Translations under genes and position numbers: made by a program | In this document: piece after piece, positions 6,641-35,714 of the stretch | How positions within the stretch are numbered: position 1 is the first letter of the stretch | Layout: each line of letters starts with the position of its first letter | Virus record (IMG/VR): IMGVR_UViG_2734482773_000004 | Length of the DNA stretch: 35,714 nt | Strand: one strand, 5' to 3' | Origin: a virus | Taxonomy: Duplodnaviria; Heunggongvirae; Uroviricota; Caudoviricetes | Notes under the pieces: generated by a model | What the model was told of the DNA's origin: nothing | What the model saw: the letters and a program-made list of their open reading frames with translations, nothing else | Databases searched by the model: none

Positions 6641-6668
6641 GTTCTTACCCAAAACGATAATATGCGGC

Positions 6669-14355: not shown

Positions 14356-14358
14356 CCG

Positions 14359-15914: not shown

Positions 15915-15917
15915 CGC

Positions 15918-16696: not shown

Positions 16697-16710
16697 ACGG
16701 AGTAAACACC

Positions 16711-17549: not shown

Positions 17550-17694
17550 CCCGGAGACGAACGGCGATTTAAGTGCCGATATCCGACAGCTTGAGAACGC
17601 GCTGGCACGCTGTGCCAGCCAGGTAAAAATGATTAAACACTGTCAGGACGAAAACGATGCTCAAACCCGACAGCCTGCGCAGGGCGCTGACTGA
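17404..17694 (+). CDS. lysC: LysC, Rz1-like outer-membrane lipoprotein spanin, 96 aa, embedded in alternate frame
   Basis: Internal ATG at 17404 in the frame of ORF 17194..17694; lipobox LCAGC, Pro-rich; overlaps lysB 3' end and R 5' end. Confidence 0.8.
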   Translation: MKTKISAAGMALTCLMLCAGCTSAPPAPTPVIVHNACPKVSLCPMPGSDPETNGDLSADIRQLENALARCASQVKMIKHCQDENDAQTRQPAQGAD

Positions 17695-18575: not shown

Positions 18576-19327
18576 GACGGGTGTTTGTGGATAAAAAGTT
18601 TTCCATTTTGAGAAAAAGAGTAAAGCATTCTCAAAAGAAAGTTATGGATTGTATTATTGCTGACCATAATGCTGATATATGTGTGTTATGCGGGAGTTCT
18701 GACGATATTACTCGTGAGCACATTATTCCTCAGTGGGCCTTTGAGTCAAATGCTGAAAAATCTTTAATTAATAAAAAGAATAATCAGTCAACTCATTACA
18801 TTAAAGCCACTGTACCAGCATGCAGAGTGTGCAATTCTGATTTGCTGGGAGTGTTTGAGTATAACCTGAAGAAATTTCTTACGGAAAAGAGGGGGGGTGA
18901 GTTAACAGATTATGAATATGATTGCATCATATGGTGGTTGCAATACATGGGCTTCAAGTTGCAATTAATGGATTTACGGACCCGCTTTCTCAGGTATAAA
19001 GGGGGTGATTATATCCCTTTTCTTGCAAACTTCCCGGTTGCAATGTTTTGGGGGGATGTCGATACGACGCCGGGGGATGTCTTCAGGATTATACGAAAAT
19101 CGCGACGCAATCTGATGTCGAAATGGAAGGATAAAAAACATAATTCTTTGATGGTTTTTGAAACATCAAACAAGAGTTTTCATTTCTTTCATAAGGTTGA
19201 TGAATTTATTTTTATTGAAATACCTCAGGTTAAGAAGGCGTTTTTCTTCTTTTTTAATAAAGAATTTGACAGCCATGATTTAGCTCATGAGGAGTGTATG
19301 AAGATTATAGAGAAGTGCTACAACTAA
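18572..19327 (+). CDS. Cargo: HNH-motif nuclease-like protein with unknown C-terminal domain, 251 aa
   Basis: CVLCG...REHIIPQW...N...CRVCN follows the HNH zinc-finger pattern; ATG overlaps S stop; AT-rich; occupies the P2 orf30 locus between S and V. Confidence 0.7.
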   Translation: MRRVFVDKKFSILRKRVKHSQKKVMDCIIADHNADICVLCGSSDDITREHIIPQWAFESNAEKSLINKKNNQSTHYIKATVPACRVCNSDLLGVFEYNLKKFLTEKRGGELTDYEYDCIIWWLQYMGFKLQLMDLRTRFLRYKGGDYIPFLANFPVAMFWGDVDTTPGDVFRIIRKSRRNLMSKWKDKKHNSLMVFETSNKSFHFFHKVDEFIFIEIPQVKKAFFFFFNKEFDSHDLAHEECMKIIEKCYN

Positions 19328-19336
19328 TATTTATTA

Positions 19337-19355
19337 TGTTGTGTCACAGCTGACA
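19337..19355. promoter_or_regulatory. Candidate late-promoter element upstream of V: TGTTGTGTCA plus palindrome TGTCA-N4-TGACA
   Basis: Decamer shared with the O upstream region; perfect dyad tgtcacagctgaca at 19342..19355. Confidence 0.4.
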
Positions 19356-19404
19356 GAATCCTCCATGATTGCTGCTGGTATCGTCCGGCGGCATCCTTCC
19401 CGTT

Positions 19405-20040
19405 ATGAACACTCTCGCAAATATTCAGGAACTCGCGCGCGCACTGCGCAACATGATTCGCACCGGCATTATCGTCGAAACTGACCTTAACGCCGGTCGC
19501 TGCCGTGTGCAGACCGGCGGCATGTGCACTGACTGGCTTCAGTGGCTGACCCATCGCGCCGGACGTTCGCGCACATGGTGGGCACCTTCCGTGGGGGAAC
19601 AGGTGCTGATTCTGGCCGTGGGCGGTGAACTCGACACGGCGTTCGTTCTGCCGGGGATTTATTCCGGCGATAACCCCGCGCCGTCTGCGTCGTCTGATGC
19701 CCTGCATATCCGTTTCCCTGACGGGGCGGTGATTGAATATGAACCTGAAACCAGTGCACTCACGGTAAGCGGAATTAAAACGGCCAGCGTGACGGCTTCT
19801 GATTCTGTTACTGCCACGGTGCCGGTGGTCATGGTGAAAGCATCAACCCGCGTCACCCTGGACACACCGGAGGTGGTTTGCACCAACAGGCTGATTACCG
19901 GCACGCTGGAAGTGCAGAAGGGCGGGACGATGCGCGGCAACATTGAACACACCGGCGGTGAGCTCTCATCAAACGGTAAGGTACTGCATACCCATAAACA
20001 CCCCGGCGACAGCGGCGGCACAACCGGGGGACCTCTATGA
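19405..20040 (+). CDS. V: Baseplate spike protein V, 211 aa from ATG 19405
   Basis: Internal start MNTLANIQELARAL gives P2 length. Confidence 0.9.
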   Translation: MNTLANIQELARALRNMIRTGIIVETDLNAGRCRVQTGGMCTDWLQWLTHRAGRSRTWWAPSVGEQVLILAVGGELDTAFVLPGIYSGDNPAPSASSDALHIRFPDGAVIEYEPETSALTVSGIKTASVTASDSVTATVPVVMVKASTRVTLDTPEVVCTNRLITGTLEVQKGGTMRGNIEHTGGELSSNGKVLHTHKHPGDSGGTTGGPL

Positions 20041-20384
20041 CTGCGCGTTATCTCGGAATGAATCGCAGTGATGGCCTGACTGTCACTGACCTTGAGCATA
20101 TCAGCCAGAGTATCGGCGATATCCTGCGTACCCCCGTCGGCTCACGGGTGATGCGTCGTGATTACGGCTCGTTGCTGGCGTCAATGATTGACCAGCCGCA
20201 GACCCCGGCGCTTGAGTTGCAGATTAAGGTCGCCTGTTACATGGCGGTGCTGAAATGGGAACCCCGCGTAACCCTGTCATCCGTCACCACTGAGCGCAGT
20301 TTTGACGGGCGAATGACTGTCACTTTGACCGGCCAGCACAACGACACCGGCCAGCCACTTTCGTTAACCATCCCTGTGAGTTGA
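20037..20384 (+). CDS. W: Baseplate protein W, 115 aa
   Basis: Position and length as P2 W; start overlaps V stop. Confidence 0.9.
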   Translation: MTARYLGMNRSDGLTVTDLEHISQSIGDILRTPVGSRVMRRDYGSLLASMIDQPQTPALELQIKVACYMAVLKWEPRVTLSSVTTERSFDGRMTVTLTGQHNDTGQPLSLTIPVS

Positions 20385-20388
20385 AACC

Positions 20389-21297
20389 ATGCCGATTATC
20401 GACCTGAACCAGCTACCCGCACCGGATGTGGTCGAGGAGCTGGACTTTGAAACCATTCTTGCCGAACGCAAGGCGACACTGATTTCCCTTTACCCGGAAG
20501 ACCAGCAGGAGGCGGTCGCCCGTACCCTGACGCTGGAATCTGAGCCTCTCGTCAAACTGCTGGAGGAAAATGCTTATCGTGAGCTTATCTGGCGTCAGCG
20601 TGTGAATGAGGCCGCACGGGCGGTGATGCTGGCCTGTGCCGCCGGTAATGACCTTGATGTGATTGGTGCCAATTACAACACCACGCGCCTGATTATCACC
20701 CCGGCAGATGATTCGACTATCCCGCCGACACCGGCAGTGATGGAATCTGACACCGATTATCGTCTGCGTATTCAGCAGGCTTTTGAGGGCTTAAGCGTCG
20801 CCGGGTCAGTGGGAGCCTATCAGTATCATGGTCGCAGTGCTGACGGGCGTGTCGCGGATATTTCTGTCACCAGTCCGTCTCCTGCCTGTGTCACCATCTC
20901 TGTGCTGTCACGTGAAAATAACGGCGTCGCATCCGAAGACCTGCTGGCTGTGGTGCGTAACGCCCTTAATGGCGAGGACGTCAGGCCGGTGGCCGACCGC
21001 GTGACCGTGCAGTCTGCCGCCATCGTTGAATACCAGATAAACGCCACGCTTTACCTTTACCCTGGTCCCGAAAGCGAACCCATCCGCGCTGCCGCCGTGA
21101 AAAAACTGGAAGCGTACATCACGGCACAGCACCGGCTGGGGCGCGACATCCGTCTGTCTGCCATTTATGCCGCTTTGCATGTGGAAGGCGTGCAGCGTGT
21201 CGAGCTGGCCGCACCACTGGCCGACATCGTGCTCAACAGTACGCAGGCGTCTTTCTGCACCGAATACCGCGTCGTGACCGGAGGCTCGGATGAGTGA
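20389..21297 (+). CDS. J: Baseplate protein J, 302 aa
   Basis: Position and length as P2 J. Confidence 0.9.
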   Translation: MPIIDLNQLPAPDVVEELDFETILAERKATLISLYPEDQQEAVARTLTLESEPLVKLLEENAYRELIWRQRVNEAARAVMLACAAGNDLDVIGANYNTTRLIITPADDSTIPPTPAVMESDTDYRLRIQQAFEGLSVAGSVGAYQYHGRSADGRVADISVTSPSPACVTISVLSRENNGVASEDLLAVVRNALNGEDVRPVADRVTVQSAAIVEYQINATLYLYPGPESEPIRAAAVKKLEAYITAQHRLGRDIRLSAIYAALHVEGVQRVELAAPLADIVLNSTQASFCTEYRVVTGGSDE

Positions 21298-21820
21298 TTC
21301 GCGACTGCTGCCGACCGGCTCATCACCGCTTGAAGTTGCTGCCGCAAAAGCCTGTGCGGAAATTGAAAAAACGCCGGTCAGGATTCGTGAGCTGTGGAAC
21401 CCGGACACCTGCCCGGCAAATTTGCTGCCGTGGCTGGCGTGGGCGTTTTCGGTCGACAGGTGGGATGAAAAGTGGCCGGAAGCGACAAAACGCGCCGTTA
21501 TCCGCGATGCCTATTTCATCCACTGTCATAAGGGCACTATAGGTGCAATCCGGCGTGTGGTGGAGCCGCTCGGCTATCTCATCAACGTGACGGAGTGGTG
21601 GGAAAACAGTGACCCGCCCGGCACCTTCCGGCTTGATATTGGTGTACTGGAAAGCGGTATCACAGAGGCAATGTATCAGGAAATGGAACGGCTGATTGCT
21701 GATGCCAAACCTGCAAGCCGCCACCTTATTGGTCTGAACATTACCCGGGACATTCCCGGCTACCTGTTCGTCGGTGGTGTGGCTTATGACGGCGATGTAA
21801 TTACGGTTTACCCCGGATAA
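21290..21820 (+). CDS. I: Baseplate/tail-fibre attachment protein I, 176 aa
   Basis: Position and length as P2 I; overlaps J end. Confidence 0.9.
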   Translation: MSDSRLLPTGSSPLEVAAAKACAEIEKTPVRIRELWNPDTCPANLLPWLAWAFSVDRWDEKWPEATKRAVIRDAYFIHCHKGTIGAIRRVVEPLGYLINVTEWWENSDPPGTFRLDIGVLESGITEAMYQEMERLIADAKPASRHLIGLNITRDIPGYLFVGGVAYDGDVITVYPG

Positions 21821-21830
21821 GTGAGGAATA

Positions 21831-24149
21831 ATGAGCACAAAATTCAGAACCGTTATCACCACTGCCGGTGCAGCAAAGCTGGCAGCGGCAACCGCACCGG
21901 GAGGGCGGAAGGTCAACATTACCACGATGGCCGTCGGGGATGGCGGTGGTAAATTGCCTGTCCCGGATGCCGGACAGACCGGGCTTATCCACGAAGTCTG
22001 GCGACATGCGCTGAACAAAATCAGCCAGGACAAACGAAACAGTAATTATATTATCGCAGAGCTGGTTATTCCGCCGGAGGTGGGCGGTTTCTGGATGCGT
22101 GAGCTTGGCCTGTACGATGATGCAGGAACGTTAATTGCCGTGGCGAACATGGCCGAAAGTTATAAGCCTGCCCTTGCCGAAGGCTCAGGGCGTTCGCAGA
22201 CCTGCCGCATGGTCATCATCGTCAGCAGTGTGGCCTCAGTGGAGCTGACCATTGACACCACAACGGTGATGGCAACGCAGGATTACGTTGATGACAAAAT
22301 TGCAGAGCACGAACAGTCACGACGTCACCCGGACGCCTCGCTGACCGCAAAAGGTTTTACTCAGCTAAGCAGCGCGACCAACAGCACGTCTGAAACACTG
22401 GCCGCAACGCCGAAAGCGGTAAAGGCCGCCTATGACCTTGCTAACGGGAAATATACTGCGCAGGATGCCACCACGGCGCGAAAAGGCCTTGTTCAGCTCA
22501 GTAGTGCGACCAACAGCTCGTCTGAAACGCTCGCCGCAACGCCGAAAGCGGTAAAGGCAGCATATGACCTTGCTAACGGGAAATACACTGCACAGGACGC
22601 CACCACCGCGCGAAAAGGCCTTGTTCAGCTTAGTAGCGCCACCAACAGCGATTCTGAAACGCTTGCGGCAACACCAAAGGCGGTTAAGACAGCGTATGAC
22701 CTTGCTAACGGGAAATACACTGCACAGGATGCCACCACTGCGCGAAAAGGTCTTGTCCAGCTAAGTAGCGCCACCAACAGTGATTCTGAAACCCTCGCGG
22801 CAACGCCAAAAGCAGTGAAGTCTGCCTATGACAATGCTGAAAAACGTCTTCAGAAAGATCAGAACGGTGCGGATATTCCGGGAAAGGATACCTTCACGAA
22901 AAATATCGGAGCCTGTCGTGCTTATAGCGGCGCTTTGAGCACTGAAGCCGGAAACTGGACAACCGCTCAGTTTATTGAATGGCTGGATTCCCGTGGTGCA
23001 TTTAATCATCCGTACTGGATGTGCAAAGGCTCCTGGTCATATGCAAATAACAAAATCATTACGGATACCGGATGTGGTGATATCCACCTGGCTGGTTGTG
23101 TCGTCGAGGTCATGGGAACTAAATCTGCAATCACTATCCGAGTGACCACGCCGACAACATCAAGCGGTGGCGGTACAACCAGCGCGCAATTCACTTACAT
23201 TAATCATGGGGACGGCTACTCCCCCGGCTGGCGTCGTGACTGGAATCGTCAGGGCGACTCAATGACCGGAACGATTAATCAGGATGGCGGAAGCCAGAAT
23301 GCCTATATGTCTACGGCCTTATGTTCAGGCACCAGAGGCGGCAAAAAATATCTCAGAAAGTTTCGTGGTGGAGAAGGAGACACTATCTGGCATGAAACAG
23401 TACAGGGCGGGGTAGTTCGCTGGGCGACTGGTAATACTGATGCTCAGGAAGAATTATCACTCAGCTCCGCTTATGGTCTCCGTTCAAGAGGTGAGATTAC
23501 ATCAAGCAGTGCTAATGGTCTGCGCATTGCTTATGGCAATTATGGATTCTTTATCAGGAATGATGGCAGCAGCACTTATTTTATGTTGACTAAATCAGGT
23601 GACAGATTAGGCACTTATAATAATTTAAGACCACTGATTATAAATGATGCCACGGGTGCTGTATCAATGGGGCATGGCCTGAGTGTTACTGGTGATATTG
23701 CCTCAAGTACCAAAGTACGTGCCGGTAGCGGGAAAAAATTCACGGTCAGCAGCAGTAATACATCCACGAAGGAAGCCGCATTCAATTTGTGGGGCAACTC
23801 AAGTCGTCCGGTGGTGGCTGAATTAGGTGATGATGCAGGCTGGCATTTTTACAGTCAGAGAAATACAGATAACAGCATCACTTTTGCTGTTAACGGGCAG
23901 GTATCACCATCTAACTATAGTAATTTTGATTCACGCTATGTCCGGGATATCCGGCTTGGTGGTGCTGCCACATACAAACCTGCGAACAATGGCATGACAT
24001 GGACACATCAGGCACCGTCCGGGTGTGTATATTCCGGCATTATTGTTCAGGATACCGGCTCAAACTCTGCCGATAACATTGGTGGCGTATATTACAGACC
24101 GGTGCAGAAATACATTAACGGGACTTGGTATAACGTGGCGCAGGTATAA
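21831..24149 (+). CDS. H: Tail fibre protein H, 772 aa, with four tandem 44-aa repeats and a divergent AT-rich C-terminal domain
   Basis: Position after I; about 100 aa longer than recalled P2 H (669 aa), roughly the size of the repeat expansion; C-terminal half lies in lower-GC DNA. Confidence 0.88.
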   Translation: MSTKFRTVITTAGAAKLAAATAPGGRKVNITTMAVGDGGGKLPVPDAGQTGLIHEVWRHALNKISQDKRNSNYIIAELVIPPEVGGFWMRELGLYDDAGTLIAVANMAESYKPALAEGSGRSQTCRMVIIVSSVASVELTIDTTTVMATQDYVDDKIAEHEQSRRHPDASLTAKGFTQLSSATNSTSETLAATPKAVKAAYDLANGKYTAQDATTARKGLVQLSSATNSSSETLAATPKAVKAAYDLANGKYTAQDATTARKGLVQLSSATNSDSETLAATPKAVKTAYDLANGKYTAQDATTARKGLVQLSSATNSDSETLAATPKAVKSAYDNAEKRLQKDQNGADIPGKDTFTKNIGACRAYSGALSTEAGNWTTAQFIEWLDSRGAFNHPYWMCKGSWSYANNKIITDTGCGDIHLAGCVVEVMGTKSAITIRVTTPTTSSGGGTTSAQFTYINHGDGYSPGWRRDWNRQGDSMTGTINQDGGSQNAYMSTALCSGTRGGKKYLRKFRGGEGDTIWHETVQGGVVRWATGNTDAQEELSLSSAYGLRSRGEITSSSANGLRIAYGNYGFFIRNDGSSTYFMLTKSGDRLGTYNNLRPLIINDATGAVSMGHGLSVTGDIASSTKVRAGSGKKFTVSSSNTSTKEAAFNLWGNSSRPVVAELGDDAGWHFYSQRNTDNSITFAVNGQVSPSNYSNFDSRYVRDIRLGGAATYKPANNGMTWTHQAPSGCVYSGIIVQDTGSNSADNIGGVYYRPVQKYINGTWYNVAQV
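22350..22877 (+). repeat. Four tandem 132-bp (44-codon) in-frame repeats within H
   Basis: aaagg repeat anchors at 22350, 22482, 22614 and 22746 (period exactly 132); protein unit is approximately KGLVQLSSATNS-SETLAATPKAVKAAYDLANGKYTAQDATTAR. Confidence 0.9.
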
Positions 24150-24152
24150 TTT

Positions 24153-24680
24153 ATGCAGCATTTGATAAATATAACGGCAGGTAATCCAAAAACGGTTGAA
24201 CAATATCAATTGACAAAGGATTTTGATGTTGTCTGGTTTTTTACAGAAGATGGTAAGAACTGGTACGAAGAACAAAAGTATTTTGCTGATGACACGATAA
24301 AAATAGCGTACGACAAAGATAATATCATCCGCTATGTGGAAAAGGATGTGACAGCTATCAGACCGGATGGATTAAGTGTGGTTGAAGTGGCGGATATTAC
24401 TGCTAACCGACGGGCGGATATTTCAGGGGGCTGGATGTTTAAGGACGGCAAAGTGATTAAACGCATTTATACGGCAGAGGAATTACAGCAGCAGGCAGAA
24501 ATTCGGAAAGCCAGACTTCTTGCAGATGCTGAATCCGTGATTTTGCCGCTGGAGCGCGCGGTCAGACTGAACATGGCAACAGATGAGGAGCGTAGCCGAC
24601 TGGAAGCATGGGAGCGCTACAGCGTTCTGGTCAGTCGTGTGGATCCTGCAAATCCTGAATGGCCGGAAATGCCGCAATAA
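24153..24680 (+). CDS. G: Tail fibre assembly chaperone G, 175 aa
   Basis: Immediately downstream of H; length as P2 G; AT-rich 5' portion. Confidence 0.85.
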
Positions 24681-24849
24681 GTTGTATGAGCTCTGGTGTG
24701 AGCTTACATATCTATGGCACAGAGTAAAGCCTAATCTGACAGTCAGCTCTGTGCCAAAAGCAGACGTTCAAGTTATACTGTCCATTTCTGCAATCAGTCA
24801 CCTGCAACTATGCGGCCAATTGCAAAGATGGCGGTAATAAACAATAGTT

Positions 24850-24885
24850 GATTTGCCGGCGTGGTCGTATAAATGCTGGCAAATC
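24850..24885 (-). terminator. Possible terminator hairpin downstream of the minus-strand cargo gene
   Basis: gatttgccggc (24850..24860) pairs with gctggcaaatc (24875..24885) with one mismatch; moderately T-rich following sequence on the minus strand. Confidence 0.3.
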
Positions 24886-24925
24886 CCCTCTTGACGTAAT
24901 TCCCAGCCCCATCCGGACACGATAG

Positions 24926-25630
24926 TCATTTTGTTTTCATATCGTTTTTTAAGCTCTTCTGTTTGAACTCCAACCCATTAATATTCTCCATGCGAAAGTA
25001 AGTCAGCTGATGAATCACTTTCCCGTTAACCACGTTCCATGTAAAAACATTTTCGTCATACACTTTTGCTATTGCATATTCTTTATTATTCATGATAAAT
25101 ACTGTGAATTCGTTGCCGTGAACAGATGATCTACCCAGTCCTATAAAGGTAAGGGAAAAGAAGAAAGCAATGGCTGCACCGTTGAGAGCCTGAATACCAA
25201 ACTCTCTGATATTCCCTCTATCAAAGGAAGCATTTTTCTTTTCAACATGGATAGGTATCCACTGGCTCAGCAAGTGTAAAAGAACGAGCGCATTAAAAAC
25301 AAAAAGCAGCAGAATGTCGAGTGGAATGTTTAGCATGGAATATGCACCGGCCACATATACTACGCTTATCCCTAAATGTGCAGCGGCTCTTTTATGTTTA
25401 TCATCCTTCGCCCATATAAGAAAAGCAGTGGATATCGTCAATAAAGGAAATGAAAAAAGACATATACTCATAATGTCATTGCTTATCGTGGGAATGCTGA
25501 GAGTTATTAAATCCAACGGTATATTCAGCTCACTGGCGACCCCCCTTTCATAAAAATATACGGCGGCATAAAAAGCTGCCGTCAGGCCCGCTACAAATAA
25601 AGATTCTTTTTTTAAGATATAGTTGTACAT
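24926..25630 (-). CDS. Cargo: polytopic membrane protein (about 4 predicted TM helices) with small C-terminal soluble domain, 234 aa
   Basis: Hydrophobic segments at roughly residues 11-27, 45-70, 83-120 and 150-168; AT-rich; minus strand within the G-FI variable locus. Confidence 0.65.
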   Translation of the reverse strand: MYNYILKKESLFVAGLTAAFYAAVYFYERGVASELNIPLDLITLSIPTISNDIMSICLFSFPLLTISTAFLIWAKDDKHKRAAAHLGISVVYVAGAYSMLNIPLDILLLFVFNALVLLHLLSQWIPIHVEKKNASFDRGNIREFGIQALNGAAIAFFFSLTFIGLGRSSVHGNEFTVFIMNNKEYAIAKVYDENVFTWNVVNGKVIHQLTYFRMENINGLEFKQKSLKNDMKTK

Positions 25631-26157
25631 AACATTCCTGTAATGCTTTTTTCAGCATATCAAATTGCCTGACTGGCCCGACAACTCATTTCATAACGAA
25701 CTAAATGTTCGCAAAATGCAGGGAGTCAGAGACTTCTTTTCGGTCTGATTAATACTCCCAAACCACCGCGATGTCCCTTACACTGAAGAGAATGCGATAG
25801 CATCAGAAATAATTTATCAGTTCAGATTCGTTGAGTTCTATGACTATGAGCACGTGTATTTCCTTGATTGCCGTTCCATCACGACAGGTCCGCAACGTGC
25901 TAGAAATAGATATTATAACATTTGTATGTCCTAATTTCCTAGAGCTGTGAGCAGATCAACGTCATTTCGTCCTGACCGGCCCCCTATACTTCCTACAGTT
26001 CTGATGTTGCTGCTGGGCGAAGCTGAAATCGAAGGAGGGAATACTCTTATTTAACGTTAGCGGAGAATGTGTTTCGACAAAATCCGCTAATTTTACCACA
26101 AAAAATGAGGGAATGGGCTAAGCCCAATTAAGCTTATTAAACAAATAATCTGAAGAT

Positions 26158-27123
26158 TTATTTGTTGGCATTTTTCTCTTTTCCGAATTTGTATTTTAGT
26201 TCATCTACTGTAATGATATCTATCTCAATTGGGAAATTGGCTTTACGCTTGATTTTTGAAATCAGCTTCATGAATGAGTTCGCTTCATTATAATTTTTTG
26301 CCGTGATTACATAGACAATATAGACTCTAAAGCCTTTAAAATGCCTCCAGCTCTCGTTGATCAAATCTAGGGTGCTAAGAATATTAGCGCTCTTCAGCGG
26401 ACTAAACACATCGATTTCCAAGAAAATAATTTCACCAGTTAAAACTCCATTGGAAATTGGAGGGTAATAAGCGCCATCAAAATTGTGATAACCGAATTCA
26501 TTTCTCATCTCGGTTTTGTCAACATCAAAACTTACATCAAGCTTAGATTCAGCATATTGAAAAGCCATATATGATACTTCATTACCGAGTTTTTTAAGCA
26601 TTTTCTCCTTCTTGTCAACAGTCTCAGAGACAGAATTCAAGGGGGAGGTCTTTAATGATGGGATAATGGTGCCTACCGAGAAATATTTGTCATCTTGTTT
26701 AGAGGACTCACTTTCTTGTCGACTGTTTTCATCTTTACCAGCAAACTCATTATTTTTAGGAGTCATTTCCTCTTCTAATATAGATACGTTTGGCACATCA
26801 TTTTTATCTAATGGGGAGGTAATGGATATACCCTGCAGACCTATCAAAGTCATATAGTTTTTCTCATCCGCAAAATCACTGGGAGCATAAAGGGACTCCG
26901 GCTTCTTATGGAGAGTGAAAAAAAATAGACTAACTAAGAATGTAGGGAAGAACATTAGAAAAAATATATATATTTTTTGATTTGGCTCGGATATCCATGG
27001 GAGTATTGCTGTACCGCTTACCTCTGCTAGCCCAGCAAACATTGCAATAATAGTTAAGGGGTTTTTTACTAATGAAATAGCACCAGCCATTGTCATATCC
27101 TTATAAAAATTCAAATAGCTCAT
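26158..27123 (-). CDS. Cargo: membrane-anchored protein (2 N-terminal TM helices, acidic/Ser-rich linker, C-terminal domain of about 150 aa), 321 aa
   Basis: N-terminal hydrophobic helices, low-complexity linker (EEEMTPKNNEFAGKDENSRQESESSKQDDK), AT-rich; minus strand within the G-FI variable locus. Confidence 0.65.
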   Translation of the reverse strand: MSYLNFYKDMTMAGAISLVKNPLTIIAMFAGLAEVSGTAILPWISEPNQKIYIFFLMFFPTFLVSLFFFTLHKKPESLYAPSDFADEKNYMTLIGLQGISITSPLDKNDVPNVSILEEEMTPKNNEFAGKDENSRQESESSKQDDKYFSVGTIIPSLKTSPLNSVSETVDKKEKMLKKLGNEVSYMAFQYAESKLDVSFDVDKTEMRNEFGYHNFDGAYYPPISNGVLTGEIIFLEIDVFSPLKSANILSTLDLINESWRHFKGFRVYIVYVITAKNYNEANSFMKLISKIKRKANFPIEIDIITVDELKYKFGKEKNANK

Positions 27124-27385
27124 TGCGACACACGCTCACCAGAGCGTGAAATTTGTTCATATCTTAATTATTAAAACCTACTGAGTCCACAATGTCATTT
27201 TATCTCGCTGGAGTCCAGAGTGACCAGTTCCCAGTGATTGACAATTAATGTTGTTAGCAATGCCTGCATCTCGCTCAAAGCAGACTGTCAGATTTGACAA
27301 AGTTTTGGCTACGTAATTTGTCAGTTGGAAACTGAGTGAGTGCAAATCATGACAGGTAGGCGGATTACCCGCCTTTTCTTTGTCT

Positions 27386-27395
27386 GTTGTTTCAT
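27386..27395. promoter_or_regulatory. Candidate late-promoter motif TGTTGTTTCA upstream of FI
   Basis: Variant of the decamer found upstream of O and V, followed by CTGACCAG similar to the V upstream CTGACAGA. Confidence 0.35.
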
Positions 27396-27477
27396 CCACT
27401 GACCAGCCAGGTCAAATAGCGTCTCATGCTCTGCACAACAGAAAATAGTTGCACCCATTAACCACGGAGTTAAACGG

Positions 27478-28668
27478 ATGAGTGACTATCATCACGGCGT
27501 GCAGGTGCTGGAGATTAACGACGGCACCCGCGTCATTTCCACCGTATCCACCGCCATTGTTGGCATGGTCTGCACGGCCAGCGATGCGGATGCGGAAATC
27601 TTCCCCCTCAATAAACCGGTGCTGATTACCAATGTGCAGAGCGCAATTGCAAAGGCCGGTAAAAAAGGCACGCTGACGGCGTCGTTGCAGGCCATCGCTG
27701 ACCAGTCAAAACCGGTCACCGTTGTTGTGCGCGTGGAAGACGGCACCGGCGACGACGAAGAAACGAAACTTGCGCAGACCGTTTCCAATATCATCGGCAC
27801 CACCGACGAAAACGGTCAGTACACCGGACTGAAAGCCCTGCTGGCGGCGGAGTCGGTAACCGGTGTTAAACCGCGTATTCTCGGCGTGCCGGGACTGGAC
27901 ACCAAAGAGGTGGCTGTTGCACTGGCATCAGTCTGTCAGAAGCTGCGCGCTTTCGGATATATCAGCGCATGGGGCTGTAAGACCATTTCCGAGGTGAAAG
28001 CCTACCGCCAGAATTTCAGCCAGCGTGAGCTGATGGTCATCTGGCCGGATTTCCTCGCATGGGATACGGTCACCAGTACCACCGCCACCGCGTATGCCAC
28101 CGCCCGTGCGCTGGGTCTGCGCGCTAAAATCGACCAGGAGCAGGGCTGGCATAAAACGCTGTCCAATGTCGGGGTGAACGGTGTTACCGGCATCAGCGCA
28201 TCCGTCTTCTGGGATTTGCAGGAGTCCGGCACCGATGCTGACCTGCTTAACGAGTCAGGCGTCACTACGCTGATTCGCCGCGACGGTTTCCGCTTCTGGG
28301 GTAACCGTACCTGCTCCGATGACCCGCTGTTCCTCTTTGAAAACTACACCCGCACCGCGCAGGTGCTGGCCGACACGATGGCTGAGGCGCACATGTGGGC
28401 GGTGGACAAGCCCATCACCGCAACGCTGATTCGCGACATCGTTGACGGCATCAATGCCAAATTTCGTGAGCTGAAAACAAACGGCTATATCGTGGATGCG
28501 ACCTGCTGGTTCAGCGAAGAATCCAACGATGCGGAAACCCTCAAGGCCGGAAAACTGTATATCGACTACGACTATACCCCGGTGCCTCCTCTCGAAAACC
28601 TGACCCTGCGCCAGCGTATTACCGATAAATACCTGGCAAATCTGGTCACTTCGGTTAACAGCAATTAA
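27478..28668 (+). CDS. FI: Tail sheath protein FI, 396 aa
   Basis: Position and length as P2 FI. Confidence 0.92.
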   Translation: MSDYHHGVQVLEINDGTRVISTVSTAIVGMVCTASDADAEIFPLNKPVLITNVQSAIAKAGKKGTLTASLQAIADQSKPVTVVVRVEDGTGDDEETKLAQTVSNIIGTTDENGQYTGLKALLAAESVTGVKPRILGVPGLDTKEVAVALASVCQKLRAFGYISAWGCKTISEVKAYRQNFSQRELMVIWPDFLAWDTVTSTTATAYATARALGLRAKIDQEQGWHKTLSNVGVNGVTGISASVFWDLQESGTDADLLNESGVTTLIRRDGFRFWGNRTCSDDPLFLFENYTRTAQVLADTMAEAHMWAVDKPITATLIRDIVDGINAKFRELKTNGYIVDATCWFSEESNDAETLKAGKLYIDYDYTPVPPLENLTLRQRITDKYLANLVTSVNSN

Positions 28669-28680
28669 GGAGCCTGACCG

Positions 28681-29199
28681 ATGGCAATGCCGCGCAAACT
28701 CAAGTTAATGAACGTCTTTCTGAACGGCTACAGCTATCAGGGCGTTGCAAAGTCCGTCACGCTGCCAAAACTGACCCGTAAGCTCGAAAACTATCGCGGT
28801 GCGGGGATGAACGGCAGCGCACCGGTAGACCTCGGCCTTGATGACGATGCGCTGTCAATGGAGTGGTCGCTCGGGGGCTTCCCGGATTCGGTTATCTGGG
28901 AGCTTTACGCCGCAACCGGTGTGGATGCCGTACCGATTCGTTTTGCAGGCTCTTACCAGCGCGACGATACCGGCGAAACGGTGGCCGTCGAGGTGGTCAT
29001 GCGTGGACGTCAGAAAGAAATCGACACCGGCGAGGGTAAACAGGGAGAAGACACCGAGTCGAAAATCTCCGTGGTCTGCACCTATTTCCGGCTGACGATG
29101 GACGGTAAGGAGCTGGTCGAAATCGACACCATCAACATGATTGAGAAGGTGAACGGCGTCGACCGGCTGGAGCAACACCGCCGCAATATCGGCCTGTGA
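28681..29199 (+). CDS. FII: Tail tube protein FII, 172 aa
   Basis: Position and length as P2 FII. Confidence 0.92.
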   Translation: MAMPRKLKLMNVFLNGYSYQGVAKSVTLPKLTRKLENYRGAGMNGSAPVDLGLDDDALSMEWSLGGFPDSVIWELYAATGVDAVPIRFAGSYQRDDTGETVAVEVVMRGRQKEIDTGEGKQGEDTESKISVVCTYFRLTMDGKELVEIDTINMIEKVNGVDRLEQHRRNIGL

Positions 29200-29255
29200 T
29201 TTTCATACGGTCAGCCAGGCTGACCGGTTAACCCTGATTCAGAAGTGAGAAAACC

Positions 29256-29531
29256 ATGAACAAAGAAAATGTCATTACCCTGGAAAATCCGGTCAAACGT
29301 GGTGAGCAGGTTATCGAACAGGTCACGCTGATGAAACCCAGTGCCGGGACGCTGCGCGGTGTCAGTCTGGCTGCGGTCGCAAACTCCGAAGTCGATGCAC
29401 TGATTAAAGTGCTGCCGCGCATGACGGCACCGATGCTGACCGAGCAGGAAGTCGCCGCGCTGGAACTGCCTGACCTTGTGGCGCTGGCCGGTAAGGTGGT
29501 CGGTTTTTTGTCGCCGAACTCGGTGCAGTAA
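29256..29531 (+). CDS. E: Tail assembly chaperone E, 91 aa
   Basis: Position upstream of the tape measure gene; length as P2 E; contains slippery heptamer near its 3' end. Confidence 0.88.
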   Translation: MNKENVITLENPVKRGEQVIEQVTLMKPSAGTLRGVSLAAVANSEVDALIKVLPRMTAPMLTEQEVAALELPDLVALAGKVVGFLSPNSVQ

Positions 29532-29683
29532 CGTTTCCGAAAAATCTCTCGGTCGATGACCTGATGGCGGATGTGGCAGTGATATTTCACTGGCCGCCAT
29601 CAGAACTGTATCCCATGAGCCTGACCGAACTCATCACATGGCGCGAAAAGGCGCTCCGGCGAAGCGGAAACACGAATGAGTAA
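29256..29683 (+). CDS. E+E': E+E' tail assembly chaperone produced by programmed -1 frameshift, about 142 aa
   Basis: Slippery site T_TTT_TTG at 29504..29510 in the E frame; the -1 frame stays open to TAA at 29681..29683, overlapping the start of T. Confidence 0.8.
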
Positions 29684-32123
29684 CAATGTAAAATTACAGG
29701 TATTGCTCAGGGCTGTTGACCAGGCATCCCGCCCGTTTAAATCCATCCGCACAGCGAGCAAATCGCTGTCGGGGGATATCCGGGAAACACAAAAATCACT
29801 GCGCGAGTTGAACGGTCAGGCATCCCGTATTGAGGGATTTCGCAAGACCAGTGCACAGCTCGCCGTGACTGGTCATGCACTTGAAAAGGCACGGCAGGAG
29901 GCCGAAGCCCTTGCCACACAGTTTAAAAACACCGAACGTCCGACACGTGCTCAGGCGAAAGTGCTGGAATCCGCGAAGCGTGCGGCGGAGGACTTACAGG
30001 CGAAATATAACCGCCTGACGGATTCCGTTAAACGCCAGCAGCGGGAACTGGCCGTTGTGGGAATTAATACCCGCAATCTTGCACATGATGAGCAGGGACT
30101 GAAAAACCGTATCAGTGAAACCACCGCACAGCTTAACCGTCAGCGTGACGCGCTGGCGCGTGTCAGTGCGCAACAGGCAAAACTTAACGCAGTAAAACAG
30201 CGTTATCAGGCAGGCAAGGAACTGGCCGGAAATATGGCCTCAGTGGGCGCTGCCGGTGTGGGGATTGCTGCTGCGGGAACGATGGCCGGAGTTAAGCTGC
30301 TGATGCCCGGTTATGAGTTTGCGCAGAAAAACTCAGAATTGCAGGCCGTGCTCGGAGTGGCAAAAGACTCCGCCGAAATGGCCGCGCTACGCAAACAGGC
30401 GCGCCAGCTCGGCGACAATACCGCCGCCTCGGCGGATGATGCGGCCGGTGCGCAGATTATCATTGCGAAAGCGGGTGGAGATGCTGCGGCTATTCAGGCG
30501 GCAACGCCGGTCACGCTGAATATGGCACTGGCGAATCAGCGGTCGATGGAAGAAAACGCGCAACTGTTGCTGGGGACTAAGGCATCCTTTCAACTGTCAA
30601 ATGATGATGTCAGCCATGTGGGCGACGTGTTGTCGGCAACGATGAATAAGTCGGCGGCTGATTTTCAGGGGCTCAGTGATGCACTGACTTACCTCGGGCC
30701 GGTTGCGAGGACGGCAGGTGTAAGTCTTGAGCAGGCAGCGGCCATGACAGGTGTGCTGCATGACAATAACATCAGGGGGTCAATGGCGGGTACGGGTGGC
30801 AGTGCCGTTGTCACCCGATTACAGGCACCGACTGGAAAAGCATGGGATGCACTCAAAGAGCTTGGCGTTAAAACCTCGGACAAAAAGGGAAATATGCGTC
30901 CGTTGTTCACCATTCTGAAAGAGATTCAGACCAGCTTTGATAAACACAAGCTGGGAACGTCTCAGAAGGGGGAATACCTTAAAACCATTTTTGGTGAGGA
31001 AGCCCTGAAATCAGCGAACGTTTTACTGGCAGCGGCAGCAAGCGGAAAACTGGATACGCTGACCGCCACGCTGAAAGCCTCGGACGGTAAAACGGAAGAG
31101 CTGGTTAAAATCATGCAGGATAACCTCGGCGGTGACTTTAAGGAGTTTCAGTCCGCTTATGAGGCGGTGGGGACTGACCTGTTTGACCAGCAGGAAGGCG
31201 CACTGCGTAAGCTCACACAGACGGCCACAAAGTATGTGTTAAAACTCGACGGCTGGATCCAGAAAAACAAATCACTGGCGTCAACCATCGGCCTCATTGT
31301 CGGTAGCGCGCTGGCGCTTACTGGCATCATCGGTGCAATTGGTCTTGTAGCCTGGCCGGTTATCACCGGCATCAATGCCATCATCGCGGTAGCAGGCGCA
31401 ATGGGGGCAATCTTCACGACGGTTGGCAGTGCTGTTATGACGGCCATCGGGGCGATTAGCTGGCCGGTTGTGGCCGTGGTGGCCGCCATTGTCGCCGGGG
31501 CGTTGCTTATCCGTAAATACTGGGAGCCTGTCAGCGCATTCTTTGGCGGTGTGGTGGAAGGGCTGAAAGCGGCATTTGCGCCGGTGGGGGAACTGTTCAC
31601 GCCACTTAAGCCGGTGTTTGACTGGCTGGGTGAAAAGTTACAGGCCGCGTGGCAGTGGTTTAAAAACCTGATTGCCCCGGTTAAAGCCACCCAGGACACC
31701 CTGAACCGTTGCCGTGACACGGGCGTCATGTTCGGGCAGGCACTGGCTGACGCGCTGATGCTGCCGCTTAATGCGTTCAACAAACTGCGCAGCGGTATTG
31801 ACTGGGTACTGGAAAAACTCGGTGTTATCAACAAAGAGTCAGACACACTTGACCAGACCGCCGCAAGGACTCATGCCGCCACGTATGGCACCGGTGGTTA
31901 TATTCCGGCGACCAGCTCTTATGCAGGCTATCAGGCTTATCAGCCGGTCACGGCACCGGCTGGTCGCTCTTATGTGGACCAGAGTAAAAACGAATATCAC
32001 ATCAACCTGACGGGCGGTACTGCGCCGGGGACACAGCTTGACCGCCAGTTACAGGATGCGCTCGAAAAATACGAGCGGGATAAACGTGCGCGCGCCCGTG
32101 CCAGCATGATGCATGACGGTTAA
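29676..32123 (+). CDS. T: Tail tape measure protein T, 815 aa
   Basis: Long Ala/Gly-rich protein with coiled-coil N-terminus and hydrophobic central segment; position and length as P2 T. Confidence 0.92.
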   Translation: MSNNVKLQVLLRAVDQASRPFKSIRTASKSLSGDIRETQKSLRELNGQASRIEGFRKTSAQLAVTGHALEKARQEAEALATQFKNTERPTRAQAKVLESAKRAAEDLQAKYNRLTDSVKRQQRELAVVGINTRNLAHDEQGLKNRISETTAQLNRQRDALARVSAQQAKLNAVKQRYQAGKELAGNMASVGAAGVGIAAAGTMAGVKLLMPGYEFAQKNSELQAVLGVAKDSAEMAALRKQARQLGDNTAASADDAAGAQIIIAKAGGDAAAIQAATPVTLNMALANQRSMEENAQLLLGTKASFQLSNDDVSHVGDVLSATMNKSAADFQGLSDALTYLGPVARTAGVSLEQAAAMTGVLHDNNIRGSMAGTGGSAVVTRLQAPTGKAWDALKELGVKTSDKKGNMRPLFTILKEIQTSFDKHKLGTSQKGEYLKTIFGEEALKSANVLLAAAASGKLDTLTATLKASDGKTEELVKIMQDNLGGDFKEFQSAYEAVGTDLFDQQEGALRKLTQTATKYVLKLDGWIQKNKSLASTIGLIVGSALALTGIIGAIGLVAWPVITGINAIIAVAGAMGAIFTTVGSAVMTAIGAISWPVVAVVAAIVAGALLIRKYWEPVSAFFGGVVEGLKAAFAPVGELFTPLKPVFDWLGEKLQAAWQWFKNLIAPVKATQDTLNRCRDTGVMFGQALADALMLPLNAFNKLRSGIDWVLEKLGVINKESDTLDQTAARTHAATYGTGGYIPATSSYAGYQAYQPVTAPAGRSYVDQSKNEYHINLTGGTAPGTQLDRQLQDALEKYERDKRARARASMMHDG

Positions 32124-32137
32124 GGAGGTGACGAAAA

Positions 32138-32617
32138 ATGATGCTCGCGTTAGGTATGTTTGTTTTTATGCGCCAGACGTTGCCACACCAGACCATGCAG
32201 CGTGAATCAGATTATCGCTGGCCGTCAAATTCCCGTATCGGTAAACGGGATGCCTTTCAGTATCTCGGTGTGGGTGAGGAAAACATTACGCTTGCCGGCG
32301 TGCTTTATCCCGAACTGACCGGCGGCAAGCTGACGATGACCACGCTCAGGCTGATGGCAGAGGAAGGCCGGGCGTGGCCGTTGCTGGATGGCACCGGCAT
32401 GATTTACGGCATGTATGTCATCAGCAGGGTGAGTGAAACAGGGAGTATTTTCTTTGCAGACGGCACACCCCGAAAAATTGATTTTACGCTGTCACTCACC
32501 CGCGTTGATGAATCACTGGCCGCGCTTTATGGCGATATCGGTAAACAGGCGGAATCGCTCATCGGTAAAGCTGGCAGTATGGCGACCAGATTCACGGGTA
32601 TGACGGGGGCGGTATAA
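32138..32617 (+). CDS. U: Tail protein U, 159 aa
   Basis: Position and length as P2 U. Confidence 0.9.
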   Translation: MMLALGMFVFMRQTLPHQTMQRESDYRWPSNSRIGKRDAFQYLGVGEENITLAGVLYPELTGGKLTMTTLRLMAEEGRAWPLLDGTGMIYGMYVISRVSETGSIFFADGTPRKIDFTLSLTRVDESLAALYGDIGKQAESLIGKAGSMATRFTGMTGAV

Positions 32618-33780
32618 TGCTGGATGCACTGACATTTGATGCAGGCAGTACGCTGACGCCGGATTACATGCTGATGCTCGACAGCAGGGATATTACCGGC
32701 AATATCAGCGACCGTCTGATGAGTATGACCCTGACGGATAGCCGGGGCTTTGAGGCTGACCAGCTTGATATTGAACTGAACGATGCCGACGGGCAGGTCG
32801 GGCTGCCGGTTCGTGGTGCTGTTCTGACGGTGTATATCGGCTGGAAAGGTTTTGCCCTGGTATGCAAAGGGAAATTTACCGTTGATGAGGTTGAACACCG
32901 GGGCGCGCCGGATGTGGTCACCATCCGCGCCCGGAGTGCAGATTTCCGCGGGACGCTCAATTCCCGCCGTGAAGGCTCCTGGCATGACACCACGCTCGGT
33001 GCGATTGTTGAGGCGATAGCCTCCCGTAACAGACTGGAAGCCAGTGTCGCTCCGTCACTGGCCGGAATTAAAATCCCGCACATCGACCAGTCGCAGGAGT
33101 CTGATGCGAAATTCCTGACCCGTCTTGCAGAACGCAACGGCGGTGAGGTCTCGGTAAAAATGGGAAAACTGTTGTTTCTCAAAGCGGGGCGGGGGGTGAC
33201 GGCCAGTGGTAAAAAAATCCCGCAGATTACCATCACCCGCAGCGACGGCGACCGTCATCATTTTGCGATTGCTGACCGTGGAGCTTACACCGGCGTAACG
33301 GCAAAGTGGTTACACACCAAAGACCCGAAGCCGCAAAAGCAGAAGGTAAAACTGAAACGCAAAAAGAAAGAGAAACACCTGCGCGCACTGGAGCACCCGA
33401 AAGCGAAACCAGTCACGCAGAAGAAAGCTCCTAAAGTACCGGAAGCGCGCGAAGGTGAATACATGGCCGGTGAGGCTGATAACGTTTTTGCCCTGACCAC
33501 GGTATATGCCACGAAAGCGCAGGCCATGCGCGCCGCTCAGGCGAAGTGGGATAAACTGCAACGGGGCGTTGCGGAGTTCTCCATCAGCCTGGCTACCGGT
33601 CGGGCAGATATTTACACGGAAACACCGGTTAAAGTGTCAGGCTTTAAGCGCGTCATAGACGAGCAGGACTGGACAATCACTAAGGTGACACATTTTCTGA
33701 ATAATAGCGGCTTCACGACGTCCCTGGAGCTTGAGGTCAGGCTTTCTGATGTGGAGTACGAAACAGAAGATAATGAGTGA
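32617..33780 (+). CDS. D: Tail protein D (late control region), 387 aa
   Basis: Position and length as P2 D; start overlaps U stop. Confidence 0.9.
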   Translation: MLDALTFDAGSTLTPDYMLMLDSRDITGNISDRLMSMTLTDSRGFEADQLDIELNDADGQVGLPVRGAVLTVYIGWKGFALVCKGKFTVDEVEHRGAPDVVTIRARSADFRGTLNSRREGSWHDTTLGAIVEAIASRNRLEASVAPSLAGIKIPHIDQSQESDAKFLTRLAERNGGEVSVKMGKLLFLKAGRGVTASGKKIPQITITRSDGDRHHFAIADRGAYTGVTAKWLHTKDPKPQKQKVKLKRKKKEKHLRALEHPKAKPVTQKKAPKVPEAREGEYMAGEADNVFALTTVYATKAQAMRAAQAKWDKLQRGVAEFSISLATGRADIYTETPVKVSGFKRVIDEQDWTITKVTHFLNNSGFTTSLELEVRLSDVEYETEDNE

Positions 33781-33861
33781 TGTTTTTATTTTATCTGTTT
33801 GTTTTATAAGGATAAATTAACTAAAATGGCACCATCAACAAAACCGGAAGAGGTGCTCGCG

Positions 33862-34080
33862 ATGTTTCATTGTCCTTTATGCCAGCATGCCGCACATGCG
33901 CGTACAAGCCGCTATATCACTGACACGACAAAAGAGCGTTATCATCAGTGCCAGAACGTGAATTGCAGTGCCACGTTCATCACTTATGAGTCGGTACAGC
34001 GATACATCGTGAAGCCGGGAGAAGTCCATGCCGTAAGGCCGCACCCGTTGCCGTCAGGGCAGCAAATTATGTGGATGTAA
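33862..34080 (+). CDS. ogr: Ogr late-gene transcription activator (zinc finger), 72 aa from ATG 33862
   Basis: CPLC...CQNVNC zinc-binding motif; internal start MFHCPLCQ gives the 72-aa P2 Ogr length; last phage gene before attR. Confidence 0.92.
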   Translation: MFHCPLCQHAAHARTSRYITDTTKERYHQCQNVNCSATFITYESVQRYIVKPGEVHAVRPHPLPSGQQIMWM

Positions 34081-34093
34081 TTACAAACAGGAA

Positions 34094-34117
34094 GCCCCTC
34101 AGTCGAGGGGCTTTTTT
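34094..34117 (+). terminator. Rho-independent terminator after ogr
   Basis: gcccctc-agtc-gaggggc hairpin followed by tttttt. Confidence 0.8.
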
Positions 34118-34122
34118 GTCGA

Positions 34123-34143
34123 TGTGGTCAATGTGTGGACGTG
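34123..34143. promoter_or_regulatory. Putative Int arm-type sites in the ogr-side arm (tgtggtcaat / tgtggacgtg)
   Basis: Two TGTGG(A/T)C repeats with 11-bp period, same family as 592..612. Confidence 0.4.
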
Positions 34144-34180
34144 ACCAGAAATAAATCCTTTTATTTCAATTTGTTGTACG

Positions 34181-34208
34181 TAAAAAATAAGCCCGTGTAA
34201 GGGAGATT
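34181..34208. repeat. attR: attR core, 28-bp direct repeat
   Basis: Identical to 476..503; overlaps the 3' terminator of the CyaR sRNA. Confidence 0.85.
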
Positions 34209-34268
34209 ACACAGGCTAAGGAGGTGGTTCCTGGTACAGCTAGCATTTTATGGGTTATGTTTTTCAGC
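34182..34268 (-). ncRNA. cyaR: CyaR (RyeE) CRP-dependent Hfq-binding sRNA, about 87 nt
   Basis: Minus-strand sequence gctgaaaaacauaacccauaaaaugcuagcuguaccaggaaccaccuccuuagccuguguaaucucccuuacacgggcuuauuuuuu matches my recollection of CyaR; terminator stem formed by gccuguguaa and uuacacgggc plus U-run; lies between yegQ and the prophage as in K-12. Confidence 0.75.
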
Positions 34269-34289
34269 GAAACGGATGATAACCTTAAT

Positions 34290-34325
34290 AAATACAGCTG
34301 TATGTGATCGGTTTCTAAGAATTTT
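34290..34325 (-). promoter_or_regulatory. Putative cyaR promoter with CRP half-site
   Basis: Minus-strand tcttagaaaccgatcacata contains a TCACA half-site about 40 nt upstream of the inferred CyaR 5' end; a TATCAT -10-like hexamer lies nearer the start. Confidence 0.35.
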
Positions 34326-34352: not shown

Positions 34353-35714
34353 TCACTTACCGTGGGGATTACGCGTGGTTTCCCCGGAGAAATTACGCAT
34401 CAGCAGCGCGTAATTGAGCTCAAGATCCTGCGGGACCGGGAGCCACACAGTATAACCATCGCCTGGTGCTATCGGCATAGCTTCGCCTTTGGCGTTTTCC
34501 ATGTGCTCAAGGGTAAAATTAATGTTGCCTTGCGGCGTCATCAGCTCAAGGCTGTCGCCAACGGAGAATTTATTTTTCACCGCTACCGCCGCGAGGTCCC
34601 CCTTGCGCTCACCGGTAAACTCACCAACAAACTGCTGGCGGTCAGAAACTGAATAACCGTATTCGTAGTTCTGATAATCGTCGTGAGTATGACGACGCAG
34701 GAAACCTTCGGTATAGCCACGATGCGCCAGACCTTCCAGAGTTTCCAGCAGGCTGGTATCGAACGGTTTTCCCGCAGCGGCGTCATCGATAGCTTTGCGG
34801 TAAACCTGTGCGGTGCGTGCACAATAGTAGAAAGATTTGGTACGACCTTCGATTTTCAGCGAATGCACGCCCATTTTGGTCAGGCGTTCTACATGGGCGA
34901 TGGCGCGCAGATCTTTCGAGTTCATGATGTAAGTGCCGTGCTCATCTTCAAACGCGGTCATATACTCGCCCGGACGCTGGGCCTCTTCGATCATAAACAC
35001 TTTGTCGGTTGGTGCGCCGATACCCAGCGTCGGCTCAACATTTTGCACCGGAATCGGCTCGTACTTGTGTACGATGTTGCCAACATCATCTTCTTTCCCT
35101 TCCTGGACGTTGTACTCCCAGCGGCAGGCGTTGGTGCAGGTGCCCTGGTTCGGGTCGCGCTTGTTGATATAGCCAGAGAGCAGGCAGCGACCGGAGTAGG
35201 CCATGCACAGCGCGCCGTGAACGAAGATCTCGATCTCCATATCCGGCACCTGATTGCGGATCTCTTCAATCTCTTCCAGCGACAGCTCGCGAGAGAGGAT
35301 CACGCGGGTCAGGCCCATTTGCTGCCAGAATTTCACCGTCGCCCAGTTCACGGCGTTAGCCTGCACCGAAAGGTGGATCGGCATTTCAGGGAAGTGCTCA
35401 CGCACCAGCATAATCAGCCCTGGATCGGACATAATCAGCGCATCCGGCCCCATTTCCACCACCGGTTTCAGGTCACGGATAAAGGTTTTCAGCTTGGCGT
35501 TGTGCGGTGCAATGTTGACCACGACATAAAACTTTTTCCCCAGCGCGTGGGCTTCATTGATGCCGAGCTGAAGATTTTCGTGGTTGAATTCGTTGTTGCG
35601 CACACGCAGGGAATAACGCGGCTGGCCCGCATAAACAGCATCTGCGCCATAAGCGAAAGCGTAACGCATATTTTTCAGCGTTCCCGCCGGGGAAAGGAGT
35701 TCCGGTTTAAACAT
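34353..35714 (-). CDS. yegQ: Peptidase U32-family protein YegQ (tRNA hydroxylation protein TrhP), 453 aa
   Basis: Full-length ORF on the minus strand beyond attR; N-terminus MFKPELLSPAGTLKNMRYAFAYGADAVYAGQPRYSLRVRN matches recalled E. coli YegQ; host-like GC content. Confidence 0.85.
   Translation of the reverse strand: MFKPELLSPAGTLKNMRYAFAYGADAVYAGQPRYSLRVRNNEFNHENLQLGINEAHALGKKFYVVVNIAPHNAKLKTFIRDLKPVVEMGPDALIMSDPGLIMLVREHFPEMPIHLSVQANAVNWATVKFWQQMGLTRVILSRELSLEEIEEIRNQVPDMEIEIFVHGALCMAYSGRCLLSGYINKRDPNQGTCTNACRWEYNVQEGKEDDVGNIVHKYEPIPVQNVEPTLGIGAPTDKVFMIEEAQRPGEYMTAFEDEHGTYIMNSKDLRAIAHVERLTKMGVHSLKIEGRTKSFYYCARTAQVYRKAIDDAAAGKPFDTSLLETLEGLAHRGYTEGFLRRHTHDDYQNYEYGYSVSDRQQFVGEFTGERKGDLAAVAVKNKFSVGDSLELMTPQGNINFTLEHMENAKGEAMPIAPGDGYTVWLPVPQDLELNYALLMRNFSGETTRNPHGK

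Follow-up and report, generated by a model that had tools for sequence, protein, structure and literature searches.

The window (the whole 35,714-nucleotide stretch of DNA analyzed) is bounded by host genes, with yegR at its left end and yegQ (trhP), which adjoins the small RNA (sRNA) gene cyaR, at its right end. A P2-type prophage occupies the space between yegR and cyaR, and each of its ends carries the 28-mer TAAAAAATAAGCCCGTGTAAGGGAGATT. Exactly two copies of this 28-mer were found in the window, at 476..503 and 34181..34208, both on the plus strand and in direct orientation; the probability of a 28-nt exact repeat arising by chance in 35.7 kb is negligible. The main features of the locus are as follows.

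1..318, plus strand: yegR (host), identified by position and sequence as the yegR annotated in E. coli MSHS 472 (L003) and in a K-12-type sequence (L002)
378..475: host left arm (B arm) of attB, resembling a decayed P2 P arm (compare 34081..34180)
476..503: attL core copy (B-O-P'), exact 28-mer repeat; holds the U-tract, 3' stem arm and loop, without the 5' arm
476..34208: complete P2-type (Peduovirus) prophage including both cores, 33,733 bp, delimited by BLASTN against P2 (AF063097)
583..1596, minus strand: int, tyrosine integrase, 337/337 residues identical to P2 Int (Pfam Int_N and Phage_integrase)
33862..34080, plus strand: ogr, late-gene activator (Pfam Ogr_Delta; E value, 1.1e-21), mapping to P2 ogr at 24036..24254
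34181..34208: attR core copy (P-O-B'), exact 28-mer repeat
34182..34268, minus strand: cyaR (ryeE) sRNA gene, intact, 87 nt, identified by Rfam RF00112 and identity to b4438
34353..35714, minus strand: yegQ (trhP) (host), adjoining cyaR, annotated in 5,424 of 5,426 complete E. coli genomes

cyaR is known as a CRP-regulated sRNA gene with an Hfq-dependent product, CyaR. A TGTGA half-site, recognized by eye only, lies at 34303..34307, upstream of the cyaR start. The Rfam family RF00112 (CyaR_RyeE) matched 34270..34185 on the minus strand with 100.7 bits (gathering score, 47), and the match was not truncated, spanning model positions 1 to 85 of 85. The curated cyaR of K-12 (NC_000913.3, b4438, 87 nt) aligned to window positions 34268..34182 with 87 of 87 nucleotides identical. 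An earlier note on this DNA, prepared from the letters alone, had assigned the minus strand of 34181..34268 to CyaR; the gene is indeed there, as both comparisons confirm, but the interval was one base too long at the 3' end, which lies at 34182. Since K-12 cyaR maps base for base to 34268..34182, the deposited 27-nt attP core of P2, found at 34182..34208 in the window, is identical to the 3'-terminal 27 nt of cyaR.

The best phage matches of the prophage were P2 and its relatives. BLASTN analyses against P2 gave blocks at 476..6415 (P2 24355..30295, 97.8% identity), 9201..18194 (P2 1..8992), and 27266..34208 (P2 17436..24382), and the order was colinear with that of P2: attP core, int, C, cox, B, A, cos, the late operons, ogr, and again the attP core. 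The P2-matched blocks were 94 to 98% identical, except for the segment of the tail-fiber-assembly gene (gene G), at 77.5%. Four segments were not of P2 type, namely three at nonessential cargo positions and the C-terminal part of the tail-fiber gene H. Joining window positions 34100..34208 to 504..620 rebuilt the P2 attP without gaps (224/226 identical). As the joined ends align gap-free to the P2 attP, the features of the P2 record could be transferred to the window; these comprise attP (24356..24382), the Int core, P-arm, and P'-arm sites, an IHF site, a Cox-binding region, and the ogr terminator. The mapping was validated by the int open reading frame, the coordinates of which were reproduced exactly using the same offset. 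The P2-colinear DNA between the two copies, the P2 integrase, and the rebuilt attP all bear out the earlier note in its reading of the repeat as the att core of a prophage. Transferred features are listed below.

520..593: predicted Cox-binding region (P2 24399..24472)
591..617: predicted Int sites of the P' arm (P2 24470..24496)
34091..34183: P arm of the attachment site
34091..34114: ogr terminator, the hairpin of which was also flagged by a terminator scan
34119..34146: predicted Int arm-type sites of the P arm
34150..34183: predicted IHF site

The minimum free energy fold of the minus strand from 34270 to 34178 and an independent terminator scan agreed on an intrinsic terminator at the 3' end of cyaR, with a stem of 11 pairs. 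Its parts, all read on the minus strand, are as follows.

34190..34217, minus strand: CyaR intrinsic terminator hairpin
34217..34207, minus strand: 5' arm of the terminator
34209..34217, minus strand: host-only part of the 5' arm (B' side), 9 nt, pairing with core-borne 34190..34198
34206..34201, minus strand: loop, UCUCCC, 6 nt
34200..34190, minus strand: 3' arm of the terminator
34189..34181, minus strand: terminator tail, UAUUUUUUA
34189..34182, minus strand: U-tract within the cyaR gene (tail TATTTTTTAC in the terminator scan)

The core at 34181..34208 therefore includes the U-tract and the 3' arm in full, together with the loop and the two innermost bases of the 5' arm. According to the earlier note, the core would supply the 3' half of the stem plus the U-run and would pair with host sequence at about 34212..34222. 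Both the half-stem and the U-run are present, and the predicted hairpin was found at attR, ending within the core; however, the core also extends through the loop and 2 nt into the 5' arm, and the host pairing partner had been placed about 5 nt away from the 34209..34217 given by the fold and the scan. The statement that the left copy (476..503) carries no 5' arm was correct. There, phage P' sequence (TAGGGTGTC...) takes the place of the 5' arm, the scan of 1..800 gave no terminator-like site, and the fold of the minus strand from 560 to 470 was not better than those of shuffled sequences (z = +0.62). Thus, of the two junctions, only attR has the terminator. The left core was also considered as a terminator of int transcription, and this was rejected, as neither a hairpin nor a terminator-like site lies there. 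On the strand of cyaR, the hairpin of the ogr terminator (34092..34113, minus strand) was flagged as terminator-like, 70 nt past the CyaR U-tract; any CyaR read-through would cross the IHF and Int arm sites before reaching it.

An unoccupied site was identified in E. coli MSHS 472 (L003), where the order is yegR, a single core, cyaR, and yegQ. A 116-mer generated by joining the left flank of the window and the core to the right flank had an exact match in this genome. In addition, the 90-mer at 34181..34270 was identical in the window lysogen, the empty site of MSHS 472, and K-12. Because this 90-mer is the same in the empty-site genome, integration has left cyaR unchanged base for base, as the earlier note had proposed in stating that the sRNA gene is kept intact.

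The distribution of these junctions was assessed across 5,426 complete E. coli genomes. The cyaR-yegQ region was present in all but two, and the P2-type junction of P arm, core, and cyaR was carried by 1,222 (22.5%). The opposite junction, consisting of the B arm, core, P' arm, and int, was found in 814 of the 5,426. From these counts, approximately 15% of complete E. coli genomes would carry a P2-type element with int at the cyaR site, and approximately 7% would have a right-end remnant only, as K-12 does. In the other genomes, among the matches listed, similarity to the window is lost at 34181/34182, where the core starts. A synthetic B-core-B' query was covered to at least 80% in 4,574 genomes, which is an overestimate of empty sites, as 4,574 together with the 1,222 attR-type genomes exceeds the total. 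This is likely due to K-12-like remnants (∼610 bp), which fall within the piece-joining distance of the search. Outside E. coli, the 20-mer AAGCCCGTGTAAGGGAGATT, which corresponds to the cyaR terminator sequence, was identified in Shigella, Escherichia ruysiae, and other Escherichia species, as well as in many Kluyvera species and two records labeled Enterobacter hormaechei. A P2-like arm abuts this 20-mer in several non-E. coli genomes, for example in Kluyvera intermedia (L025). In Shigella flexneri SFBU0723 (L011, ∼736..830), small deletions and substitutions lie in cyaR just past the core (GAGATTCACAGGCTAGG..., then CCTGTTTAGCCGCG). These changes would shorten the 5' arm of the terminator and may reflect decay of cyaR in this lineage or an assembly error.

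In K-12-type genomes, yegR is followed by a truncated core and the 3' end of gene D; ogrK and the P arm come next, then an intact core, and finally cyaR. Here, NC_000913.3 annotates a cryptic prophage, PR-X, that overlaps the last 18 nt of cyaR. The K-12-type left core (L002, 2395..2425) is truncated after ...AAGCCCGTGTA, has one extra A in its A-run, and is fused directly to the 3' end of D. The K-12 remnant therefore stems from a deletion, one endpoint of which fell within the attL core. The attR junction (P arm, core, cyaR) of this remnant (ogrK-D', PR-X) is the same as that of the window, and cyaR is identical. The two differ in that K-12 retains only ∼630 bp (the end of D, ogr, and attR), with a left core truncated after ...GCCCGTGTA, whereas the window holds a whole prophage with two intact cores.

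Together, these features argue strongly that a P2-type prophage has integrated at the primary E. coli attachment site of P2, which is the 3' end of cyaR, and we put the probability of this reading at about 95%; nothing in the sequence argues against it. In P2-type recombination, the tyrosine recombinase Int and IHF exchange strands within the core, and Cox directs excision. Here, P2 Int together with IHF would have recombined the attP core with the identical last 27 to 28 nt of cyaR. The organization of arms and core in P2 is one in which Int is bound at both arm-type and core-type sites (PMC3448106). The junction on the ogr side (attR), adjoining cyaR, regenerates the complete gene and its terminator, because the attP core and the host core are identical, and the far junction on the int side (attL) retains a nonfunctional fragment of the cyaR 3' end. 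As the crossover must lie within a 28-nt identity that starts one base past the gene, some phage-derived nucleotides are expected at attR, and the core sequence left of the crossover, which would include some or all of the U-tract and 3' arm, would physically be phage DNA. The crossover point itself could not be read from differences between attL and attR, as the two cores are identical. CyaR is probably expressed and terminated normally in the lysogen.

A direct repeat of this length might in principle represent a chance match or a target duplication of the transposition type, unrelated to site-specific recombination. The bare existence of the repeat is all that speaks for such an origin, whereas the deposited P2 attP core consists of the same 27 to 28 nt between the same P and P' arms, a single core copy is present at the empty site, the integrase is that of P2, and a 28-nt match is unexpected by chance in 35.7 kb. 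Chance or target duplication is thus refuted by the P2 attP, the single-core empty site, the rebuilt attP, and P2 Int, and can be given practically no weight. Somewhat less remote, yet still very unlikely, is that the prophage is a decayed and immobile P2 remnant comparable to ogr-D' (PR-X) of K-12, so that the att anatomy would be a fossil rather than a working module. Such a state would find parallels in the population, where roughly 400 of the 1,222 attR-type genomes appear without a matching int-side junction (1,222 versus 814), K-12 among them. In the window, however, both junctions are intact, the cores are identical, Int is 100% identical to that of P2, and the deposited Cox and arm-type positions fall inside the attP alignment (224/226). 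Outside the four replaced segments, the element is also colinear with P2 at 94 to 98% identity. The prophage is probably still excision competent.

Integration that is neutral for the host would be in doubt if the downstream context altered CyaR termination, or if CRP-driven read-through antisense to the P arm and ogr coupled carbon status to the prophage, both of which appear very unlikely. The terminator of CyaR was reported to be leaky on a plasmid in an hfq mutant, with 41% read-through (PMC9765468), the DNA downstream of the U-tract differs between the empty and the occupied site, and the hairpin of the ogr terminator, in its minus-strand reading, lies 70 nt downstream of the CyaR U-tract. 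Nevertheless, neither the hairpin nor the U-tract differs between the empty and the occupied site, and the terminated RNA would therefore be the same. Approached from the cyaR side, the ogr hairpin resembles a terminator but is followed by a tail with few T residues, and it may or may not stop read-through.

Reading the window as integration of a P2-type phage into the terminator of cyaR is correct but rediscovers what public annotation and genome papers already record, namely the attachment site, its core, and its overlap with cyaR. Table 2 of the E. coli W genome paper gives "cyaR RNA" as the site of Wphi2 (P2 type) in W, ogr-D' in K-12, and P2*B in B (PMC3032704). Bobay et al. (2013), citing Wassarman et al. 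(2001), described ryeE in E. coli as an already known phage target (PMC3603311). A paper by P2 specialists placed P2-type sites mostly between genes and did not name cyaR (PMC3448106). An explicit statement that the core is the 3' half of the CyaR terminator was not found in the searchable literature, which excluded the likely sources Wassarman 2001 and De Lay and Gottesman 2009. The present analysis makes one modest addition, a host left arm that looks like a decayed P2 P arm.

The closest known system is P2 itself, for which recombination of attP with attB at locI, the preferred site in E. coli C, involves a core, P arm, and P' arm (AF063097/NC_001895) that match those of the window at 224 of 226 positions; the Int protein is identical and the gene order colinear. 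The window prophage differs from P2 at three cargo positions and in the C-terminal part of the tail fiber, with the att anatomy untouched. Integration at the 3' ends of tRNA and tmRNA genes, as by 186 in tRNA-Ile and by Fels-2 and SopEPhi in ssrA (PMC3448106), is similar in that the core overlaps the 3' end of a structured RNA. In both cases, one junction regenerates the gene and the other duplicates a 3' fragment. Unlike in tRNA and tmRNA genes, the target here is an Hfq-dependent sRNA, with an intrinsic terminator as its 3' structure instead of an acceptor or T arm. The window prophage has its int at the end distant from the restored gene, whereas many tRNA-gene islands carry int directly beside the tRNA gene. 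Other sRNA 3' regions are also hotspots. These include ryeB/sdsR in Salmonella (PMC3603311, PMC3333887) and rybB, into which P2-type elements have inserted in E. coli W, B, and Crooks (PMC3032704, Table 2); both are loci other than cyaR and have different cores.

The locus offers a textbook-style case of a temperate phage targeting the intrinsic terminator of a conserved regulatory RNA, and lysogeny does not destroy cyaR because the phage carries a copy of the 3' half of the terminator. For annotation, cyaR can serve as a marker of a P2 hotspot, with ∼22% of complete E. coli genomes having a P2-type arm beside it. It is a further example of sRNA genes serving, as tRNA genes do, as integration sites, and it leaves current understanding unchanged.

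The host sequence to the left of the left core was compared with the P arm to the left of the right core. Positions 416..464 and 34105..34153 were 71% identical and occur in the same order relative to the core. Within them, the 15-mer TCGATGTGGTCAATG is identical at 431..445 and 34120..34134 and contains one arm-type Int site (consensus, tgTGGaCa; PMC3448106). When the 100-nt stretches immediately left of the two cores were aligned locally, the score was 22, compared with a mean of 7.5 (standard deviation, 1.3) for dinucleotide shuffles, none of which reached 22 (0/3000). The same left arm is present in unoccupied E. coli sites (L003, 2900..3000). In Escherichia sp. MOD1-EC7003 (L026, ∼560..660), where the site lacks P2 genes, the arm extends ∼17 nt further and aligned ungapped, in core register, to the region of the P2 arm-type and IHF sites (score, 26; 0/3000 shuffles). 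As the left arm is P-arm-like and, in MOD1-EC7003, in register with the IHF region, the "empty" P2 site of E. coli (locI) has the appearance of a fossil attR. There is perhaps an even chance that it derives from an ancient P2-type prophage, whose decayed P arm would survive as the arm-type Int site and remnants of the IHF region. The reverse transfer, in which a phage would have acquired the host arm by aberrant excision, could produce the same resemblance but is less economical, as the Int and IHF sites of the P arm are functional parts of attP. Under the fossil-attR reading, all E. coli would owe the 3' part of their CyaR terminator to a core copy of phage origin, and the unchanged arm-type Int site beside attB might contribute to the site preference of P2.

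The remaining differences from P2 concern the cargo and the tail fiber. At 6416..9171, the orf91-tin-old region of P2 is replaced by a segment of low GC content (28 to 30%). It contains an open reading frame (ORF) at 6669..8885 on the minus strand for a 738-amino-acid AAA_13 ATPase, which matched the PADLOC candidate defense family PDC-S06 (E value, 1.6e-254) and, more weakly, PrrC. The fun(Z) position carries a different low-GC insert (24766..27265; 36 to 40%) with two ORFs, 24926..25630 and 26158..27123, both on the minus strand, encoding 234 and 321 amino acids, respectively, with hydrophobic N-terminal halves. Neither had a Pfam, PADLOC, or NCBIfam match, and they matched only PHROG families of unknown function (strongly for the 321-amino-acid product and marginally for the 234-amino-acid product); they could possibly be uncharacterized lysogenic-conversion or defense cargo. 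At 18195..19404, orf30 of P2 is replaced by a 251-amino-acid ORF (18572..19327, plus strand) that matched only PHROG 10503, of unknown function. The tail-fiber gene (21831..24149) encodes 772 amino acids, compared with 669 for P2 gpH, and contains three tandem units of 132 nt (44 amino acids) at 22349..22838. The match to P2 ends after 22556 within this gene, and therefore the receptor-binding part differs from that of P2.
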